A stretch of 64,000 nucleotides of DNA from Candidatus Latescibacterota bacterium (lineage in GTDB: Bacteria; Latescibacterota; UBA2968; UBA8231). The notes below the pieces were generated by a model. That model did not search any database. It was not told the DNA's origin and saw nothing but the letters and a program-made list of their open reading frames with translations. The DNA lies in the NCBI GenBank assembly GCA_965223905.1, contig CBDCXV010000010.1:96001-160000 (forward strand), in the 5' to 3' direction. Below are positions 17,637 to 51,454 of this stretch, piece by piece. Position 1 is the stretch's first letter, and the number at the start of each line of letters is the position of its first letter. The translations under genes and the position numbers were made by a program.

Positions 17637-19052
17637 GTGCACCGCAGTTTCATTGCCGCCGCTTCAGCCGCCGGATTGCTGCTTCTCGCGGCCGCTTCGT
17701 CGGCGCAGAGCGGGCTCTTCGTCATCACCACCGACTATTCCACCGGCAGCACCGCCTTTCTGGCCGCGGATGCAGAGGAAGCCGAGGTCAATCTGCTGGG
17801 CATCCACTCCGATGCGGTGGGGCACTACCACGACGGCCGCGTCTATGTCGTCAACCGCCTGGGACAGGACAATATCCTGGTGCTGGACGCGATGGATCTG
17901 CGCACTCCGCTGGCCCAGTTCTCGGTGGGCAACGGCACCAATCCGCACGACATCGAAATCGTCGCACCCGGCAAGGCGTACGTGACGCTCTACGACAGGG
18001 CCTCCCTGCTGGTCGTCGACCCCCGCGACGGCGCGGAACTGGGCGAGATCGATCTCAGCGCTTTCGCCGACGCGGATGGCCTGCCCGAGGTGTCGCAGAT
18101 CGTCCGCATCGGCGAGCGGCTCTACCTGAGCTGCCAGCGCCTCGACCGCGACGGCGGCTGGGAACCGGCCGACGTCAGCTACCTGATCGTCGTCGATATC
18201 GCGACCGACACCCTGGTCGATGTGGACCCTGACGCCGAGGGGGTGCAAGGCATCCGGCTGAGCGCCGCCAATCCCAACGGCATGGCGGTGACCGGTGAGC
18301 AGATCGCCGTGGGGGTGGTAGTCAACTTCGGGGACCGGTCGGGGGGAGTGGAGATCGTCGATACGGCCGCCAACCGCAGCCTCGGGCTGGCCCTCAGTGA
18401 AGAGGATCTGGGAGGCGACATCACCTCCATGGTGCTGGTCGGTCCGGACCGGGGCTATGCCGTGGTCGCGGACGAGAACTTCGCCAACAGCGTCCGGTCC
18501 TTTGATCTGTCCAGCGGCAGCGTCGGTGCCCCCCTGGAAAACATCAGCGGCGGTTTCATCCCGGATCTGGCCGCGGATGGCGACCGCCTGATCGTCGCCG
18601 ACCGCGGCAGTTTCTCCGACCCGGCCAGCGCCGGGCTCAAGTTCTACGACGCCGCCACCGGTGCCTTCCTGCGCGGCCCCATCGCCACCGGCCTGCCGCC
18701 GTCGAGCATCGTGGTCTTGAGCGATGCGACCGTCCCCACGGCCGTGGAGGAGGCGGCCGCCCGCTTGCCGCAGATTTTCGCCCTCGAGGCGGCCTGGCCC
18801 AATCCCTTCAACGCCTCGGTGCAGATTCCCTTCGGGGTCCGGGAAGCCGACACCCGGGTCGCACTGACCGTCCACGACGTGTTGGGCCGCACCATCCGCA
18901 CCCTGACCTCGGGCCCGGTGGCCGCGGGGCGGCACGTTCTCCACTGGGACGGCCGCGACGCCGGCGGCGAGCCGGTGGGCAACGGCGCGTATCTGGTGCA
19001 GCTGCGCGCCGGAAGTCAGCAGGCTGTGGGCAAAGTGATGTTGCTCAAATGA
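17637..19052 (+). CDS. Secreted beta-propeller protein (YncE/BtuG-like) with C-terminal FlgD-Ig/T9SS-type domain
   Basis: GAGGAGG RBS then GTG; signal peptide; VYVVNR, NPHDI...KAYVTLY blades; PTAVEE linker then AWPNPFN...WDGRD--G--V--GAYL. Confidence 0.75.
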   Translation: MHRSFIAAASAAGLLLLAAASSAQSGLFVITTDYSTGSTAFLAADAEEAEVNLLGIHSDAVGHYHDGRVYVVNRLGQDNILVLDAMDLRTPLAQFSVGNGTNPHDIEIVAPGKAYVTLYDRASLLVVDPRDGAELGEIDLSAFADADGLPEVSQIVRIGERLYLSCQRLDRDGGWEPADVSYLIVVDIATDTLVDVDPDAEGVQGIRLSAANPNGMAVTGEQIAVGVVVNFGDRSGGVEIVDTAANRSLGLALSEEDLGGDITSMVLVGPDRGYAVVADENFANSVRSFDLSSGSVGAPLENISGGFIPDLAADGDRLIVADRGSFSDPASAGLKFYDAATGAFLRGPIATGLPPSSIVVLSDATVPTAVEEAAARLPQIFALEAAWPNPFNASVQIPFGVREADTRVALTVHDVLGRTIRTLTSGPVAAGRHVLHWDGRDAGGEPVGNGAYLVQLRAGSQQAVGKVMLLK

Positions 19053-19099
19053 AGGGGGAACGGGCATTCGGTATGAACCCAAACACAATGGAAGACGCA

Positions 19100-19559
19100 A
19101 TGTCGAGATTCATTTTTCTATGGGGCATGGCGGCAACAGTGTGTTCGGGTACAGCATACGCCTGCAGCCTTGAGTTTTTCTCAATCGAGACAGGTGTCCG
19201 TGAGAGTGATCGCGTGGTTGTGGGCGTGGTCGATTCAGTCTCCTGGGATGAGGTCGATCTCGGGGGTGATGACGATCGATCTGGGCGAGCACTTCGACGT
19301 GGTTTCACAAGGGCATCACTGGATCGACGGTGTGCTGTGGCTTCCTGGCGGCACCTCGAATCCGCCCATTCAGGATGTGATCTACAGGGATCCCTTTATA
19401 TGGCCTTATCAAGCTCTTGAAACAACGCCAGTCCACGTGCATACCTGGGGGAGCATCAAGGAGGCGGTGACGTACGGTGCAGAAGGGAAAGTGGGCGCGG
19501 GATTTTTTAGAAGGTTCCCGAATCCCCAAGCCACGCCCGACATGGGCAAGGGCGGATAA
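19100..19559 (+). pseudogene. Remnant of a secreted protein: signal-peptide N-terminus plus out-of-frame C-terminus with TWGSIK tag
   Basis: Frame 1 MSRFIFLWGMAATVCSGTAYACSLEFF...; frame 2 ...WIDGVLWLPGG...ETTPVHVHTWGSIKE; visibly lower GC than flanks. Confidence 0.55.
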
Positions 19560-19579
19560 GGAAGGGAGAGGCAACAGGT

Positions 19580-22443: not shown

Positions 22444-23493
22444 ATGAGCGCAGCCATTCTGCAGGCACGGGGTCTGGGAATCGGGTACGCGCCGAGGGGG
22501 CGCCCCCGTCTCGAAGTGGCCGCGGACCTGGAGGTCGAGCTGTTCGAGGGGGAGCTGGTCTGCCTGCTGGGGCCGAACGGCGCCGGAAAATCCACCCTCG
22601 TTCGCACCCTGTCCGGCCTGCAGAAGCCGCTGTCCGGCGAGGTGCTCCTGCAGGGCGGCGACCTGCACGCCCTCACCGAGAGCGAAAGGGCGCGACTGCT
22701 CGGCCTCGTCCTGACCGAGCGGGTCGATGCGGGCAACCTGTCGGCTTATTCCCTCGCGGGGCTGGGCCGCTACCCGTACACCGGCTGGGACGGGCGCCTT
22801 TCCCCCGCCGACGAGGAGGTGGTGCGCTGGGCCCTGGCCGCGGTGGGGGCCGGGGACCTCGCCGCCCGCAGCGTCGGCGAGCTCAGCGACGGCGAGCGGC
22901 AGAAGGTGATGATCGCCCGGGCCCTGGCCCAGGAACCGGCGGTGCTCCTCCTCGACGAGCCCACCGCCTTTCTCGACCTGCCGCGGCGGGTCGAAATCCT
23001 GCAGCTGCTGCGGCGGCTGGCTGCCGGCGGCGACCGCGCCGTGCTTCTGTCCACCCACGATCTGGACCTCGCCCTGCGCTGCGCCGACCGCCTCTGGCTG
23101 CTGCCGCCGGGCGGCCCCCTGCAGACCGGAGCGCCGGAGGACCTGGTGCTGAGCGGGGCCTTCCAGCGGACCTTCGCCGGTGTCGAGTTCAACCCTGCGA
23201 CCGGTTCCTTTCAGCTGGAGCAGGAGCCGGAAGGGGTGGTCGGCCTGGAGGGAGAAGGGCTCGATGCCCTGTGGACGGCGCGCGCCCTGGAACGGGCAGG
23301 ATTCCGCGTCGACAGCTCGGGAAATGCCGAGGTTCGCGTCGAGATCGTCCGCCAGGACGGCGGCAGGGCCTGGAGGCTCCGGACCGCGTCCGGACCGCGC
23401 CTCTGCACCACCCTGTACGAAATGGTCGGCTGCGTCAGACATCACCTCGCCGAAAGCAGCAACCCCCCTCACGAGAGGAGTGGAAATCCGTGA
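22444..23493 (+). CDS. ABC transporter ATP-binding protein (BtuD/FecE-like)
   Basis: GPNGAGKST, LSDGERQ, LLLDEPT, STHD; real start inside the long 20788 ORF. Confidence 0.93.
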   Translation: MSAAILQARGLGIGYAPRGRPRLEVAADLEVELFEGELVCLLGPNGAGKSTLVRTLSGLQKPLSGEVLLQGGDLHALTESERARLLGLVLTERVDAGNLSAYSLAGLGRYPYTGWDGRLSPADEEVVRWALAAVGAGDLAARSVGELSDGERQKVMIARALAQEPAVLLLDEPTAFLDLPRRVEILQLLRRLAAGGDRAVLLSTHDLDLALRCADRLWLLPPGGPLQTGAPEDLVLSGAFQRTFAGVEFNPATGSFQLEQEPEGVVGLEGEGLDALWTARALERAGFRVDSSGNAEVRVEIVRQDGGRAWRLRTASGPRLCTTLYEMVGCVRHHLAESSNPPHERSGNP

Positions 23494-23717
23494 ACCGCGT
23501 CGTCTCCCTGCTGCCCAGCAGCACCAAAATCATCTGCGCCCTCGGCTGCGGGGAGCGCCTGGTCGGACGTTCCCAGGAGTGCGACTACCCCCCCGGGGTC
23601 GGCGACCTTCCCGCCTGCACGGCCCCCAAATTCGACCCGGACGGCACCTCGTACCAGATCGACCAGCGCGTCAAGGTCATACTGCAGGAGGCGGTCTCCG
23701 TGTACCGGGTGGACGCG
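23490..23717 (+). pseudogene. Second cobalamin-binding (BtuF-like) protein, N-terminal fragment
   Basis: RVVSLLPSSTKIICALG...LVGRSQECDYPP...SVYRVDA, then abrupt loss of similarity. Confidence 0.85.
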
Positions 23718-23852
23718 ATCCTGTACCAGTCATTGCCAGTGCACAGTTGCAGGGAGATTGGAGCGGCACCCTGGACACTGGGGAAGCCTTCGACCTGTCC
23801 CTCGCGGAGGATGTATTCACCCTGACAATCACGGCGGAAGTCTCTGCCTCCG

Positions 23853-25556
23853 ATGACTTTTTCAGTCACCCTTGAGACCATTGTCAAGGGAACCTGGAGC
23901 ACCGTAGAGGATAGCGTTTCCGGACTGTCTCTTGTCCCGGATGGCCCCCCGGTGATCCTGGTAGACGGGGTTTCCCCAGAGCAGTTCATCAGGAATCAGT
24001 TCGAGGATGCCGGGCTCGACACTCCGAGCGATTCGACCATTGCCGATATGCGGAATGAGTTTCTCGGGGAAGGTTCCGAATTCGGCCCGGTGACGTTTGC
24101 GTATGTCATGGAAACGGGAGATACTATTCGAGTAAGGCTACAGAATGAGAAGGGAGAAGATGCGGGACGAGTAAGACTGTACCGGAAAGGCACCGATGGA
24201 GAGTACGATTCGCTTGTTGAGGGATCGGATTTCAAGACGGTCAGAGAGGGAATAACGGAAGGACATCCCTTCATGAATTCGGTAGAGATTACCGACGTTC
24301 CAACCGGCTCCGGTCCTGGGGAGATATGGAAACTCAAACTGAGTGAACATGATAGCGATGGTCCATCCGGAAACAACTGGGTACGATTCTCCAGGAACGT
24401 GCCGCCCTATTTTTCCAACGACCCCGACCGGCTGATCTATCCGATTGTTCACAAGGAATTCAAGCCCATTACATACTGCTCTGTCCCCGGACCGCCTCCC
24501 AAGAGGCAGACCTACCGGACATATCTGACGGTGCCACGTGGCACTGGCTCTCCTATCCCCCTGACGGGGGAACTCAAGATCAATGTCAACGGCACTCGTG
24601 CCAGCGCGGTAGTTCCCAACTACAGAGCAGAAGTCGGTGTTGTAATTCCGCAAGGTGCAGCCACCGTGGAAGGAGACAACCTCCAGGCGCAGGTAGTTGA
24701 CACTAACGGCGATCTTCTCGCGGACTCTACCGACAAGGTTGACAAGGTGTATTGGGTAAACAATCCGGACTTCACCGGCTGGCCCAGTCAGATAGTTATG
24801 GCCTATGACAACGGAAGCGGCAGGAATCGAACAGCCGACTTGCAGGGTGCAGGATTCAATACCATACAGACAGATAACGATGATTCACTCGACATTATCA
24901 GTACGAACAATATGTCGAGTGCGGGAGCCATGTATACTCATGAAGTAGGGGGATCTTCGGCTATAAAGGCATGGTATTGCGAGAGCCGGGATAACGCAAT
25001 GTCTACCGATATCCGATTCTGGATGATGTTGGATGAACCAGACGCCCTGTCTGGAGAGGTAGCGAAGACATTGAAGGAACTGTACGACTTGTATTACAAA
25101 TACAACACGTATGCGAACAAGCCCTACTCCTTCAACATCAGCAATCCTATCTACATTGAGGAGTTCTGCGAGGCTTGCGACGTAATCATTGCCGATCCTT
25201 TTGTGCACAAAGAGCCTCCAAAGGGTGAGAAAGGGTCGGGTAAATACAACCAGAATCGTATCTCCGATACGGCGACAGAAATGAAATACGTTGCCGGGAG
25301 TGAGAAGAAAACCATTCTTATTTTCTGGTGGTGGAATCCCGCAGACCCCTCCAGCATAGCCGATCCAACGGTGTATGGGCTTTCCTGGGACAAGGGCATA
25401 GATGCCGAAGTAAGTGGCCTTGGAGGATTCAATTTCTCCGAAACCTTCAGAAATTCTGAAGAGGAGTTAGTAACAAATGTCCTCAGTACATACGGACCGT
25501 CTTCAGGCCCGGTACGAGCTCTGTGGAATGAAGTCAAACGCAAGCTCGATTCATAG
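23853..25556 (+). CDS. Hypothetical multidomain protein with C-terminal glycoside-hydrolase-like barrel; 5' end truncated/frameshifted
   Basis: 567-aa ORF; GAGFNTIQ, WMMLDEPD, CDVIIADPF motifs; upstream frame (PVIASAQLQGDWSG...ASDDF) joins it across a T5 run at 23858-23862. Confidence 0.6.
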   Translation: MTFSVTLETIVKGTWSTVEDSVSGLSLVPDGPPVILVDGVSPEQFIRNQFEDAGLDTPSDSTIADMRNEFLGEGSEFGPVTFAYVMETGDTIRVRLQNEKGEDAGRVRLYRKGTDGEYDSLVEGSDFKTVREGITEGHPFMNSVEITDVPTGSGPGEIWKLKLSEHDSDGPSGNNWVRFSRNVPPYFSNDPDRLIYPIVHKEFKPITYCSVPGPPPKRQTYRTYLTVPRGTGSPIPLTGELKINVNGTRASAVVPNYRAEVGVVIPQGAATVEGDNLQAQVVDTNGDLLADSTDKVDKVYWVNNPDFTGWPSQIVMAYDNGSGRNRTADLQGAGFNTIQTDNDDSLDIISTNNMSSAGAMYTHEVGGSSAIKAWYCESRDNAMSTDIRFWMMLDEPDALSGEVAKTLKELYDLYYKYNTYANKPYSFNISNPIYIEEFCEACDVIIADPFVHKEPPKGEKGSGKYNQNRISDTATEMKYVAGSEKKTILIFWWWNPADPSSIADPTVYGLSWDKGIDAEVSGLGGFNFSETFRNSEEELVTNVLSTYGPSSGPVRALWNEVKRKLDS

Positions 25557-26562
25557 GGTGTTCCTGGCTATCGTTGCAACATTGTCGGTAGCCGGGGCCG
25601 ACGAAGCTATCTGGTTCTCTGGCCCCGCCTCCTGCGGGGGGATATGTGTCAGTTCTCCTCCGGGGGCAGAGCCAGTTCCGCTGAATCCTCATATCCTGGA
25701 ATCCATCGAGGAAGATTATATTTCTTCGTTTGATCTATCTCCAGACGGACAAAGTATTGTCTTTATAGAGCTCCAGGAAAGTATCGGATGGCATTTTTCC
25801 GACGTATGGATGATGGATTCAGACGGCACAAATTTACGCGAGATTTATGAGGGAAATCGTGGATGGTGGGAAACCTCGACAAGCAGAGGAGAGTATTGGT
25901 CATCTTCTGAGACTAATGGGCTGTCCCTGGGAATCCAATGGTCTCCGGATGGACTGGAAATCCTTGTTTGCGCATATCCAGGAAGTTTTCTATTTATGGA
26001 CGAAGAAGGAAGTATTCTATACTATTGGGAAGGCTACGGGAATATCTTCTTTGATCGATTTTTTGGCACCGATCTACAGTGGGATCCCGAAGGAGACATT
26101 GTATATCAAGGATACAGCAATGACCATAGTGAATCAGACACGTTGTTCGTAAGGTCCAGGGATGGATCTATTAAGCATAGGATATTTATTCCTGGAGTAC
26201 AATCACCTCAGTTTTCTCCAGATGGATCGAAGCTGGCATATGGAGAGTGGATAAGGAGGGGACCCTCCAAGTCTTCAAGTCTTTTTGTAATGGACGTAGC
26301 AAGTGGAGAGCGACAATTTATTGCTGATGTAGCTGAATCTGATGACTGGATGTCGCCAATAGGGCCGTTTTCATGGTCTCCGTCAGGGAATCAAATTGCT
26401 TACCGGGGCATTGACGGCCTTTACGTGATTAATGCAGACGGAACTGATCCTACGTTTCTTTTTGAGACTGGTATTGTATGGGATATTGACTGGATAAGTT
26501 CTACATCGACCGGGGTGTCCCCAACTTCCTGGGGAGCCGTGAAACATGAAAAGGACTATTAA
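25528..26562 (+). CDS. Secreted TolB-like (PD40) beta-propeller protein ending in TSWGAVK tag
   Basis: Signal peptide; LSPDGQSIVF, WSPDG, FSPDGSKLAY, WSPSGNQIAY repeats. Confidence 0.82.
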   Translation: MKSNASSIHRVFLAIVATLSVAGADEAIWFSGPASCGGICVSSPPGAEPVPLNPHILESIEEDYISSFDLSPDGQSIVFIELQESIGWHFSDVWMMDSDGTNLREIYEGNRGWWETSTSRGEYWSSSETNGLSLGIQWSPDGLEILVCAYPGSFLFMDEEGSILYYWEGYGNIFFDRFFGTDLQWDPEGDIVYQGYSNDHSESDTLFVRSRDGSIKHRIFIPGVQSPQFSPDGSKLAYGEWIRRGPSKSSSLFVMDVASGERQFIADVAESDDWMSPIGPFSWSPSGNQIAYRGIDGLYVINADGTDPTFLFETGIVWDIDWISSTSTGVSPTSWGAVKHEKDY

Positions 26563-26623
26563 GGCTGTCCTCATCGCCATCGGAGTGTTTGTGGTTTTGA
26601 TTCTCCATTGGATAATCCCGTAA
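26546..26623 (+). CDS. 25-aa hydrophobic peptide
   Basis: MKRTIKAVLIAIGVFVVLILHWIIP; GGGGAG upstream; stop lies directly before a terminator hairpin. Confidence 0.45.
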   Translation: MKRTIKAVLIAIGVFVVLILHWIIP

Positions 26624-26624
26624 C

Positions 26625-26662
26625 AGGGGAGACGGCTAACGCCGCCTCCCCTTTGCTATTTT
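26625..26662. terminator. Terminator hairpin between convergent genes
   Basis: AGGGGAGACGGC-TAAC-GCCGCCTCCCCT followed by TTGCTATTTT. Confidence 0.65.
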
Positions 26663-26880
26663 ACGAGGTCCCGATACAACAGACGCTTGCCGATCATCAT
26701 GGCAACAAGGTCCTCCATCTGATCGAGGGTATCACGGTTCCTGATGTTATGCTTTCCGACAAACTCATCGACGTATCGCTGTAGGTGCTTTGGAGACCAT
26801 AGATGATACGTTCCCTTGTAGGCTCGCTTCATCATCGACCAAAAACTCTCTATGCCGTTGACGTGACAGTCCCCGGAAAC
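26656..26880 (-). pseudogene. IS1595-family (ISXO2-like) transposase, C-terminal fragment
   Basis: VSGDCHVNGIESFWSMMKRAYKGTYHLWSPKHLQRYVDEF--KHN-R...GKRLLYRDL. Confidence 0.9.
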
Positions 26881-26881
26881 C

Positions 26882-27433
26882 GATGTCTGGGACGATGTCG
26901 AGCGGGTGGCCGCGGCGCTCCAAGTGGAGGACCGGGGCGGCGCCCTGGTGGCCGAACTGCGGGACCGGCTCGCACGGATCGCCGCCCGCACCCGCCGTAT
27001 CGGCGACCGCCCGCGCGTCGCCTGCATCGAGTGGTTCGAGCCGCTGATGGCCGCCGGCAACTGGATGCCCGAGCTGGTGGAGATCGCCGGGGGCCGCAAC
27101 CTCTTCGCCTCGGCGGGGGCGCATTCCCCCTGGCTGTCGTGGGAGGCACTCGAAGATGCCCAGCCGGATTGTATTCTCCTGATGCCCTGCGGTTTCGACA
27201 TCCCCCGCTCCCGGAGGGAGCTGCCGGCGCTGACCCGGAAGCCGGCGTGGTCGCGGTTGCAGGCGGTGCAGGAGGGGCGCGTATTCCTCACCGACGGCAA
27301 CCAGTTCTTCAACCGCCCGGGGCCGCGCCTGGTGGAATCGGCGGAGATTCTCGCCGAGATCCTGCATCCCCGGGATTTCGAGGACACCCACGAGCATCGG
27401 GGATGGGAGTGGTGGGAAGGGCGTACCGGATGA
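26882..27433 (+). pseudogene. Second cobalamin-binding (BtuF-like) protein, C-terminal fragment
   Basis: DVWDDVERVA...PRVACIEWFEPLMAAGNWMPELV...MPCGFDI...DGNQFFNRPGPRLVESAEILAEILHP. Confidence 0.88.
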
Positions 27434-42899: not shown

Positions 42900-43538
42900 A
42901 TGCCCCGGATTTCGTCCTTTTTTCTGTTTCTCTGCCTGTTCGCTCTGCCGCTTTCCGCCCAGGACGATGCTCTCACCGGAACCTGGGAGACGAGCTTCAC
43001 CGACCCGGAAGTCGGCGATATCACCATTAGCCTGACCTTCGAGGCGGGCGGCGGTTTCCAGCTCGACCAGGTTATCGAGGCTTCGGACAGCTTCCTGGCC
43101 GAGGCCGGAGACGCGGTGGCCATAGAGGAGTTCACCGCTCACGGCACCGGCACCTACCGGGTCGAGGGGGACAGCCTTTTCGCCGACCTGACCGAGCTGA
43201 ACATGTACGTCGACGGCCGCGACTTCGTCGAGGTGCTGACCGAGGTGGCCCGCGCCCTCGCCCGTATCGCCGCCGACTTCGGCGGAATCTCCGATGAGGA
43301 TTACCCGGCGTTCGAGCAGGCGGCTGTCGACGAGTTACTCGCTGGATTCGACGAGGAGCAGTTCCTCGGCGGATTTGCCGGGGGCGAGCTCGGCACGTAC
43401 GCCATCGAGGGCGACACCCTGTCGATCACCACAACGGTGGAGGGCGAAGTCGACTCCCTGGATTTCATGCGCATCGATACGGCCAGCGCCGTCGCCCCAA
43501 CCACCTGGGGCAGCCTGAAGGCGGATATGCGCCCGTGA
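42900..43538 (+). CDS. Acidic secreted hypothetical protein (lipocalin-like) ending in TTWGSLK tag
   Basis: RBS, signal peptide, LTGTW, GTY-VEGDSL and GTYAIEGDTL, C-terminal SAVAPTTWGSLKADMRP. Confidence 0.8.
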   Translation: MPRISSFFLFLCLFALPLSAQDDALTGTWETSFTDPEVGDITISLTFEAGGGFQLDQVIEASDSFLAEAGDAVAIEEFTAHGTGTYRVEGDSLFADLTELNMYVDGRDFVEVLTEVARALARIAADFGGISDEDYPAFEQAAVDELLAGFDEEQFLGGFAGGELGTYAIEGDTLSITTTVEGEVDSLDFMRIDTASAVAPTTWGSLKADMRP

Positions 43539-50416: not shown

Positions 50417-51454
50417 ATGATTCGGATTGACCAGCGCGCCCCGCTCCTCCTGGCGGCCTGTCTCGCCCTGGGCGGCGCGCAGGCACACGCCGACGGCCGC
50501 GACCGGATCGGCACCGCCGCGGCCCCCGAGTTGCTGATTCCGGTGGGGGCCCGGGACATGGCCCTCGGCGGCGCTTCCATCGCCACGACATCAGGCGTCG
50601 AATCGCTGCACTGGAATCCCGCGGGCCTGTGCCGTTCCGCCAACAACGTCGACCTGATGGTGTCGACCATGGATTACATCGCCGGCATCCAGGTCAACTA
50701 CGCCGCCGTGGGAAGCCTCTTCCCCTCCATCGGCAACCTCGCCCTGAGCATCAAGTCGCTGGACCTGGGGGATATTCCGATCACCACCGCGACCCAGCCG
50801 GACGGGACGGGGGCCACCTTCAAGCCGACCTTTCTGACCCTGGGGCTCCATTACGGCCGCAGCCTGACCGACCGCATCGGCGTCGGCTCGACGCTGCACT
50901 ACGTAACCAACCGGGTCGACCGCGCCCAGGCGACCGGCCTCTCCTTCAGCGCCGGGCTGCAGTATTCCAACCTCGGCGGTATCGAAGGGTTGGACCTGGG
51001 CGTAGTGGTCAAGCATATCGGCCAGCGGCTCAGGTACGAGGGCTCGGGCCTGTTGAACCAGGGGCAGCTCAATTCGCTGCGACGCGGCCCCTCCTTCTAC
51101 ACCGTCCAGGCGAGCTCGGCCGATCTGCCTTCGACCTTCGAGCTGGGCCTGGCCTGGAACTACCCGGTGCAGGAGATGGGGGAGCTGAATTTCAGCTCGG
51201 TCTTCGAGCACCAGAACTACAGCTACGACCAGTACAAGTTGGGAGTCGAGTACGTGTTCAACGACTTCCTGGCCTTGCGCGGCGGTTTCGATTACGCAGC
51301 CGGCACCGAAGACGACACCGTCCTGTTCGGCAACAGCTTCGGCCTGGGGCTGAGTCTGCCCGGCGGCAAGACCCGCTCCCGCCTCGACTACGCCTACGGC
51401 AGCGTCGACCGCTTCGACGCGCTCCACACCTTCACCTTCCAGGCCGGCTTCTGA
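50417..51454 (+). CDS. PorV/PorQ-family outer-membrane beta-barrel
   Basis: GTAAAPELLIPVGARDMALGGA, HWNPAGL, alternating strands, LRGG, DYAY, terminal Phe. Confidence 0.85.
   Translation: MIRIDQRAPLLLAACLALGGAQAHADGRDRIGTAAAPELLIPVGARDMALGGASIATTSGVESLHWNPAGLCRSANNVDLMVSTMDYIAGIQVNYAAVGSLFPSIGNLALSIKSLDLGDIPITTATQPDGTGATFKPTFLTLGLHYGRSLTDRIGVGSTLHYVTNRVDRAQATGLSFSAGLQYSNLGGIEGLDLGVVVKHIGQRLRYEGSGLLNQGQLNSLRRGPSFYTVQASSADLPSTFELGLAWNYPVQEMGELNFSSVFEHQNYSYDQYKLGVEYVFNDFLALRGGFDYAAGTEDDTVLFGNSFGLGLSLPGGKTRSRLDYAYGSVDRFDALHTFTFQAGF

Follow-up and report, generated by a model that had tools for sequence, protein, structure and literature searches.

A C-terminal helix tag on secreted proteins of Latescibacterota and a predicted NTF2-fold lipoprotein reader linked to the T9SS

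In the 7.9-Mb genome (64% GC) of a Latescibacterota bacterium, about 122 reading frames end in a tag of about 17 residues with the consensus [TS]-[AS]-[VI]-E-x-x-[ST]-W-[GA]-x-[IVL]-K-x(3-6)-stop, which is almost certainly a genuine targeting or docking signal. The tagged proteins are mostly small (median, 303 aa) and Sec-exported, and the new element of this analysis is a predicted candidate for their reader, the lipoprotein Lip2. With a confidence slightly above even, we lean toward a mechanism in which the tag is a free-standing version of the C-terminal helix of an NTF2 lipoprotein and docks into the vacant groove of Lip2, which would act as a T9SS attachment adaptor presenting T-A-V-E to PorU.

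Tagged genes of the window

The window, a stretch of DNA of 64,000 nucleotides that was analyzed as a whole, contains three genes for which the original prediction had proposed a shared C-terminal motif. The features concerned are the following:

42900..43538, + strand: 212-aa secreted protein of a lipocalin-like family, tagged, with six tagged paralogues in the genome (from sequence and homologues)
42900..42959, + strand: Sec-type signal peptide without a lipobox (heuristic call)
43485..43538, + strand: C-terminal tag, with S-A-V at W-7 to W-5, T-W-G-S-L-K at the helix start, five residues and stop
25528..26562, + strand: 344-aa secreted TolB-like (PD40) propeller, tagged; the ORF finder places its start at 25477
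26509..26562, + strand: C-terminal tag, with T-G-V linker and S-W-G-A-V-K
19100..19420, + strand: signal-peptide-bearing N-terminal part of a frameshifted gene (frame 19049-19420)
19425..19460, + strand: decaying tag of the frameshifted gene in another frame (ORF 19170-19559), 32 residues before the stop (PSSM, 16.7 bits)
18735..18752, + strand: P-T-A-V-E-E linker ahead of the FlgD-Ig/T9SS type A-like C-terminal domain (CTD) of the 17637-19052 protein, the same motif as the front of the tag
50417..51454, + strand: PorV/PorQ-family barrel

All three motifs lie where they had been reported, TTWGSLK at 43500-43520, TSWGAVK at 26524-26544 and TWGSIK at 19443-19460, and they are the only six-frame matches of the regular expression in the window. 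TTWGSLK stands five residues before the stop of 42900-43538, and TSWGAVK stands five before the stop at 26562. The bodies are unrelated, as had been claimed, with a Pfam PD40 propeller in the gene at 25.5 kb, Lipocalin_4 on some homologues of the 42900 protein and no family for the third. The claim that all three genes begin with a Sec signal peptide holds by our heuristic, with the qualification that the third gene is broken and carries its signal peptide and its tag in different frames, and the PTAVEE linker noted in the 17637 FlgD-Ig protein was found in its place. Among the matches listed, 117 of 120 homologues of the 42900 protein keep the tag, and those with names are labeled Latescibacteria or Gemmatimonadota.

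The frameshifted gene has a tagged homologue at G000 C1:1177541-1177954, and its DNA was not found in five relatives. An assembly error as the source of the frameshift was ruled out, since in the three of four public runs that cover the gene the contigs contain no indels, one contig spanning the break unchanged. One contig of run X3 skips positions 19007-19574 of the window (566 bases absent), the mark of a presence/absence insert, which, together with the indel-free contigs, indicates that the broken tagged gene is a genuine insert, polymorphic and undergoing decay.

A lower-GC stretch of the window (23490-27433) holds the 23853-25556 protein, the tagged propeller and a remnant at 26656-26835 that we take to be transposase-like; this stretch presumably splits a binding-protein gene, whose pieces lie at 23490-23825 and 26906-27433. 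A sequence loosely reminiscent of the tag, W-x-x-V-K followed by five residues, closes the 23853 protein.

Position and carriers of the tag in the genome

A PSSM scan, which adds A-for-G variants, returned 124 frames, or 122 after removal of two short shadow frames. In its fuller form the consensus ends in ...-K-A-x-[LF], and the distance from W to the stop is 6 to 11 residues in 99 of the 122 tags. The fixed linker spacing that had been proposed is confirmed, W and K being near-invariant at a constant distance from TAV, with the invariance of W in the consensus built in by a scan that demanded this residue. Genome-wide, 73 of 99 regular-expression matches lie 0 to 9 residues from the stop, 84 lie at 0 to 14 residues, and only one is more than 35 residues from an end (13.7 million six-frame residues; frames of at least 30 residues). 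Signal peptides, called by a hydrophobicity heuristic and not by SignalP, are present on 69 of 92 tagged frames of 180 to 480 residues compared with 790 of 3356 size-matched background genes (P = 2e-24), so that both the terminal position and the signal-peptide enrichment expected of a sorting signal were borne out. None of the tagged frames called signal-bearing has a lipobox.

The largest of the 73 signal-bearing tagged frames of at least 120 aa measures 413 aa, against a median of 768 aa for CTD proteins. A hard limit on cargo size holds in this genome but fails in Eisenbacteria, where tagged frames of 500 to 1200 aa occur, and was rejected. The tagged bodies form 38 BLAST clusters among the 124 scored frames, including 61 CBM9-like members in the largest cluster, 12 TolB-like propellers, 6 members of the 42900 family and many singletons that are fragments; single WD40, Kelch, BNR, LVIVD and LTD proteins, plus unassigned ones, were met among 20 representatives scanned. 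Where CBM9-like domains are fused to WD40 and CTD (G000 C2:632022-634232 and C10:264699-267260), the tags have become internal and have decayed.

The reversed DNA pattern gave 1 match, versus 82 for the tag pattern. Synonymous codons vary across the tag copies, which implies selection at the level of the peptide, as opposed to a DNA repeat. The tag is matched by no family of Pfam or NCBIfam; NCBIfam gave nothing for the three tails of 31 to 32 aa at E values up to 10, and TIGR04183/PF18962 is matched neither by the three tails nor by the full proteins. A search of the openly accessible literature yielded no account either of the tag or of a T9SS lipoprotein with an NTF2-like fold; the original prediction likewise named no characterized family. 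Over 120 tags the helical hydrophobic moment is 0.38, compared with 0.41 for shuffled sequences, and the mean hydrophobicity is about 0; an amphipathic membrane anchor was rejected, the moment not exceeding that of the shuffles.

Relation to T9SS C-terminal domains, PorU and barrels

The genome encodes PorU (617 bits), SprA and five PorV-family barrels over the cut-off (14 PorV-family matches in all), and 148 of 150 scored FlgD_ig matches are over the cut-off. By our own model, 167 frames have a terminal CTD, none of them tagged; likewise, none of 119 tagged frames carries a terminal CTD, and one tagged protein has an internal CTD. In a pair of LVIVD paralogues, 69% identical over 356 residues, one member ends in the tag and the other in a CTD, behind the same TAV linker. 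The motif [TS][AGS][VI], which forms the front of the tag, was counted in 81 of 122 tags; among type A-like CTD linkers the count was 30 of 90, versus 2 of 90 upstream control windows, and B-like CTD linkers had no excess (8 versus 6 of 56). At the level of motif only, this front matches the PorU cleavage site; PMC11969387 gives PT/GI as the PorU cleavage consensus of Prevotella intermedia. Against a role for this motif, the abstract of PMC4804311 calls PorU cleavage sequence-independent. Tag matches led to 24 further genomes, 20 of which have PorU over the cut-off. GldM (0 of 1) and GldN (0 of 9) were not found, with their controls equally blank, and the search for TIGR03519 (PorP/SprF) was blank together with its control.

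The original prediction had a short C-terminal signal standing in place of the T9SS CTD, read perhaps by a PorV paralogue or a dedicated peptidase. The terminal position, the Sec cargo and the absence of any tag beside a terminal CTD agree with the first part; the barrel at 50417 as reader was rejected by its distribution, since close homologues occur in six of six tag-negative genomes of family f2 (see below) and were not found in tag-rich G003, G009, G121 and G146, and PorV-family barrels in tag-negative genomes number 11 to 20. The "dedicated peptidase" may be PorU itself; that PorU processes the tag, by a putative cleavage in its front, is a tentative proposal that we place somewhat below even.

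The 57 B-like CTD frames have no overlap with the tagged frames. Large B-like CTD proteins are encoded within 3 kb of 16 of the 61 CBM9-like tagged genes (background, 2.9%), and 29 of the 57 B-like CTD genes have a tagged gene within 5 kb (G000, e.g., C10:1837061-1842205 and C11:527432-539339). A secreted fusion at G000 C1:770612-771853 (L017, - strand) consists of CarboxypepD_reg, an internal FlgD-Ig CTD, a Lip2-type NTF2 domain and a canonical tag; its relative P0238 has the same build, with CTD and candidate receptor joined in one chain.

Distribution across genomes

The pattern was surveyed in 120 other genomes of the phylum, grouped in families (f1, f2, etc.) whose related genomes are not independent. 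Family f1 has 5 to 114 matches in 44 of 44 genomes (control, 0 to 4) and eight small families have 4 to 20 (control, 0 to 3), and there are 0 to 9 over 48 genomes in f2-f4 (control, 0 to 5), 0 to 1 in f8, with one weak HMM match in four genomes, and 0 to 2 in f10. Inspection of five f10 matches showed genuine tags at the terminus, with one or two in each genome. The single tagged protein of four f10 genomes (L214-L217) represents one conserved family of about 215 aa without a Pfam match, and in two of the four it directly follows a CTD protein.

Of 20 f2-f4 genomes, 17 have no match to the tag HMM and the other three have one weak match each, and PorU over the cut-off is found in 0 of 20 f2-f4 genomes versus 36 of 37 others. 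By profile search, the Lip family described below is present in 12 of 12 genomes of the phylum outside f2-f4 versus 0 of 15 inside, and the propeller body of the Lip locus was not found in four of four f2/f3 genomes. SprA is kept in 33 of 34 genomes, including 15 of 15 of f2-f4; four f2/f3 genomes retain 11 to 20 PorV-family matches, and three retain only 6 to 16 FlgD_ig. Phylogenetic profiling, suggested at the outset against PorU, PorV and SprA, thus has the tags vanishing with PorU and the Lip pair in f2-f4, while SprA and the PorV-family barrels stay. Since the CTD cargo has collapsed there too, the co-loss points to a module and not to a single protein; to judge from these searches, f2-f4 apparently have a T9SS without its usual attachment module, and the co-loss may represent one to three events. 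Genomes of f2-f4 (e.g., G018, G027, G049 and G055) are without a canonical PorU, yet have a PorU-like paralogue of 1900 aa besides SprA and 11 to 20 PorV-family barrels.

Tags are few or undetected with the Lip pair and PorU kept in f8, f10 and many Eisenbacteria (1 to 4 tags). Two explanations were discarded: (i) low-tag Eisenbacteria are not independent losses of Lip2, a tail-less Lip2 being present beside Lip1, and (ii) a missing Lip2 does not account for the tag-free f8, where a divergent Lip2, missed by a single-sequence search, adjoins Lip1 in four of four genomes. The pocket substitutions of f8 (V171G) are found also in tag-bearing f14.

GTDB-wide, the exact pattern occurs at no fewer than 110 loci. 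Among the matches listed, 74 of 80 are terminal, the other 6 being internal chance matches, and the terminal ones are labeled Latescibacterota, Handelsmanbacteria, Eisenbacteria, Krumholzibacteriia or Gemmatimonadota, or are unnamed. In the phylum of an Eisenbacteria-labeled genome, 60 of 61 genomes have tag HMM matches. The Lip profile was found in 16 of 22 genomes reached through tag matches (two of the misses being chance-match genomes) and in 26 of 30 Eisenbacteria.

The lipoproteins Lip1 and Lip2

Near PorV-family genes lie two lipoproteins, Lip1 and Lip2 (G000 C1:534238-535706), whose ends are a relaxed version of the tag. Their locus (G000 C1:534238-540294) comprises, in order, a propeller-CTD protein, two PorV/PorQ-family barrels, an M50 protease and Lip1 and Lip2 in tandem, an arrangement that is the same in G000, G009 and G003. 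The M50 protease, a site-2 protease (L138:2700-3659 = G000 C1:535699-536658), has the PorQ-like barrel on one side and Lip1 on the other in those Latescibacterota loci that were examined.

Lip1 ends in [ST]W[GS]xL[KR]AxF, a few residues past the last strand, in 118 of 127 rows and in 120 of 146 distant relatives, with a tail linker of 5 to 9 residues. Of 29 locus-derived Lip2 rows, 21 stop 3 to 6 residues after the last strand, with no terminal helix, and this tail-less state is that of most families; a degenerate tail on a long linker is present in f1 and some others, the linker in this genome's family being flexible and 20 residues long. The AlphaFold models of Lip1 and Lip2 (pLDDT 94 and 89) match NTF2-like entries in Foldseek with probability 1.00 (NTF2/SnoaL cone fold). 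The tail helix of Lip1 has a pLDDT of 96 and that of G000 Lip2 has 84 to 90 behind a linker at 58 to 64, confidence values that we read as the G000 Lip2 tail docking on its own domain in the model. Neither protein has a Pfam or NCBIfam family; a PDB sequence search with the Lip1 profile gave no solved relative (best E, 0.28), and the ESM Atlas returned unnamed clusters only (0.92 to 0.94).

In hhalign comparisons the tag matches the f1 Lip2 tails with a probability of 92% and Lip1 with 70%. Tandem Lip-domain proteins (P0373, P0429 and P0478) contain two or three NTF2 domains, with an intact W-helix behind each. The family has 1962 representatives at E values up to 0.001, and Lip1 relatives in 10 clusters examined are labeled KSB1, Ignavibacteria and Bacteroidota. 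Among 30 related Eisenbacteria genomes taken from both extremes, the number of Lip2 paralogues rises weakly with the number of tags (Spearman, 0.44).

Predicted complex of the tag with Lip2

The complex of tail-less G009 Lip2 with a 31-residue tagged C-terminus of G009 scored 0.83 in three runs, compared with 0.02 for the best of three controls; 116 of 157 solved pairs attain the mark for this score, as do 2 of 215 mismatched pairs, a calibration that is roughly valid here, where our own alignments were supplied. The pair comes from G009, and Lip2 of this genome carries a tail. The runs share at least 90% of contacts, with a partner pLDDT of 65 to 66. The tag residues that touch Lip2 in the model are the conserved ones, W, I, K and F: W contacts V171, M173, V186, Q188 and M190, K contacts F95, D113, I116, I117 and I120, and residues 17 to 20 of the tag run along strand 184-188, the whole interface (tag residues 14 to 26) including most of TAVE. 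Position 113, the partner of K, is D or E in 21 of 21 tail-less Lip2 proteins and E in 93 of 95 f1 rows, and it is acidic in all 13 further Lip2 proteins aligned and in Lip1. Groove residues are more conserved than others (0.88 versus 0.65; P = 0.002), which could be ordinary core conservation.

The lack of a solved relative by sequence makes it less likely that the prediction recalls a solved complex. The tag resembles the domain's own tail, so a fitting groove is expected even if the natural occupant is the tail of Lip1 or of Lip2 itself, and the model also has TAVE touching Lip2, which would account for the conservation of TAVE even with no protease. With the complex model in support of predicted binding, Lip2 is probably the reader of the tag, and the NTF2-fold lipoprotein is a better candidate for this role than the 50417 barrel.

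Discussion

The tag shares several properties with the type A CTD of the T9SS (TIGR04183/PF18962, FlgD_ig-like in this genome; with the PorU-PorV-PorQ-PorZ attachment complex): (i) it is C-terminal on Sec-exported proteins of unrelated families, (ii) it follows the same small-residue/V-I linker, (iii) it is interchangeable with the CTD on one paralogue pair and is co-lost with PorU, and (iv) it occurs in a genome with PorU, SprA and PorV-family barrels. Unlike that CTD, a beta fold of 45 to 90 residues with motifs B, D and E, it has about 17 residues, adopts a helix in the lipoprotein models and no beta-sandwich or three-stranded sheet, is devoid of YxxxG, GxY and terminal-strand motifs and of a TIGR04183 match, and has as its predicted reader an NTF2-fold lipoprotein and not a barrel. 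The short CTDs of Prevotella intermedia have 43 to 55 aa (PMC11969387). With no CTD family match and no beta fold, the tag is not a member of the T9SS CTDs.

Like the type B CTD with PorP/SprF, the tag would be a separate signal class with its own dedicated partner, and CBM9-like tagged genes lie near B-like CTD genes; unlike the type B CTD, it has no folded domain and no adjacent cognate barrel for each cargo. A precedent for a dedicated reader is the use of different shuttles by different CTD classes, as set out in PMC12618676. Tripartite signals (LPXTG, PEP-CTERM, GlyGly-CTERM and MYXO-CTERM) resemble the tag in being C-terminal, present in many copies per genome and attached to unrelated bodies with signal peptides, but they differ from it in that the tag has no transmembrane segment, basic cluster or invariant Cys and carries its signature residues at the very end; by the description in bioRxiv 10.1101/2023.06.07.544157, a transmembrane helix with a basic cluster behind it belongs to such signals, and the tag has neither. 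The predicted completion of the Lip2 fold by a peptide from another chain, with one type of scaffold for many cargoes, would be analogous to donor-strand or helix complementation or to cohesin-dockerin pairing, with the difference that the Lip2 receptor is NTF2-like and has no sequence or family match. Such labels as cohesin-like, dockerin and PorZ-like we take to be analogies only.

In the mechanism toward which we lean, the tag would have arisen from the terminal helix of the Lip domain family. Cargo would be exported by Sec and then captured by Lip2, the tag being predicted to complete the tail-less Lip2 by helix complementation in trans, with W in a hydrophobic pocket, K on the conserved Asp/Glu and E-x-x-T along the edge strand; in this genome's family, the degenerate tail of Lip2 would need to be displaced. 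Lip2 would thereby bring small secreted proteins to the T9SS attachment module, where, in the weakest step, PorU may cut T|AV and link the cargo to the surface glycolipid as it does for CTD cargo. Counting against the proposal are the retention of the Lip pair and PorU in groups with few or undetected tags, the tail that Lip2 already carries in this genome, and the arithmetic of one to three Lip2 genes for over 100 cargo genes.

Several other readings bear on the same data. If the tag were a dockerin-like handle that held proteins non-covalently on Lip2-type lipoproteins, in the periplasm or at the surface, with no cut by PorU, the same complex prediction would apply, the contact with most of TAVE would be explained, and the small size of the tagged proteins relative to CTD proteins and the weak rise of Lip2 paralogues with tag number would fit; this we regard as unlikely, because TAV is also found in CTD linkers, where there is no helix to be docked, and persists at the junction in the pair that has swapped tag and CTD, and because the tags vanish together with PorU. 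Somewhat less probable still is that the tag mimics a lipoprotein tail and is read by a PorV/PorQ-family barrel or by PorU, with the Lip2 groove holding the tail of Lip1 or its own. In favor of this reading, genomes with rare tags still conserve the Lip pair, the modeled groove of G000 Lip2 is occupied by that protein's own tail, the 14 PorV-family matches offer candidates, and specialized shuttles for different CTDs are described in PMC12618676; but the conserved residues of the tag are those buried in the NTF2 groove of the model, the Lip1 tail is confidently placed within its own monomer on a short linker, PorV-family barrels persist in tag-negative families and the 50417 barrel does not track the tags.

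A tail acting without a reader, as a membrane-binding amphipathic helix or as a signal for stability or degradation that is linked to the T9SS by coincidence, would suit a short helix, bearing W and K, at the very end of the protein. It is improbable given a hydrophobic moment no higher than that of shuffles and hydrophobicity near zero, near-invariant W and K at a fixed spacing from TAV, and co-loss with the attachment module. That the motif merely spread by gene duplication or as a DNA repeat, with no common function, is already largely refuted and now very improbable: half of the tagged frames (61 of 124) belong to one paralogous family and many are fragments, but the tag also sits on PD40, WD40, Kelch, BNR, LVIVD, LTD, CBM9-like and unassigned bodies, its codons vary synonymously, the reversed pattern is nearly absent, matches GTDB-wide are overwhelmingly terminal among those listed, and the two copies trapped inside fusions have decayed.

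Returning to the Lip2 mechanism, we suggest with less than even confidence that the tag may constitute a third class of T9SS-linked signal, a 17-residue lipoprotein-derived helix read by a tail-less paralogue, through which dozens of small proteins in each genome would reach PorU and be attached to the surface with no folded CTD, in at least three candidate phyla that apparently lack the Bacteroidota motor (the GldM/GldN controls were blank). The T9SS signals described in PMC11969387 and PMC12618676 are folded beta domains with outer-membrane barrels as readers. If the proposal is true, the reading of a short helix by a lipoprotein adaptor would be a new principle of recognition, with no smaller signal of its kind, and a function would be named for a widespread, unannotated lipoprotein family. 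The tag and its receptor, a soluble domain of 20 kDa, could also be a compact protein-docking pair. For Latescibacterota and Eisenbacteria, up to about 100 hypothetical proteins per genome would be marked as targeted to the envelope.
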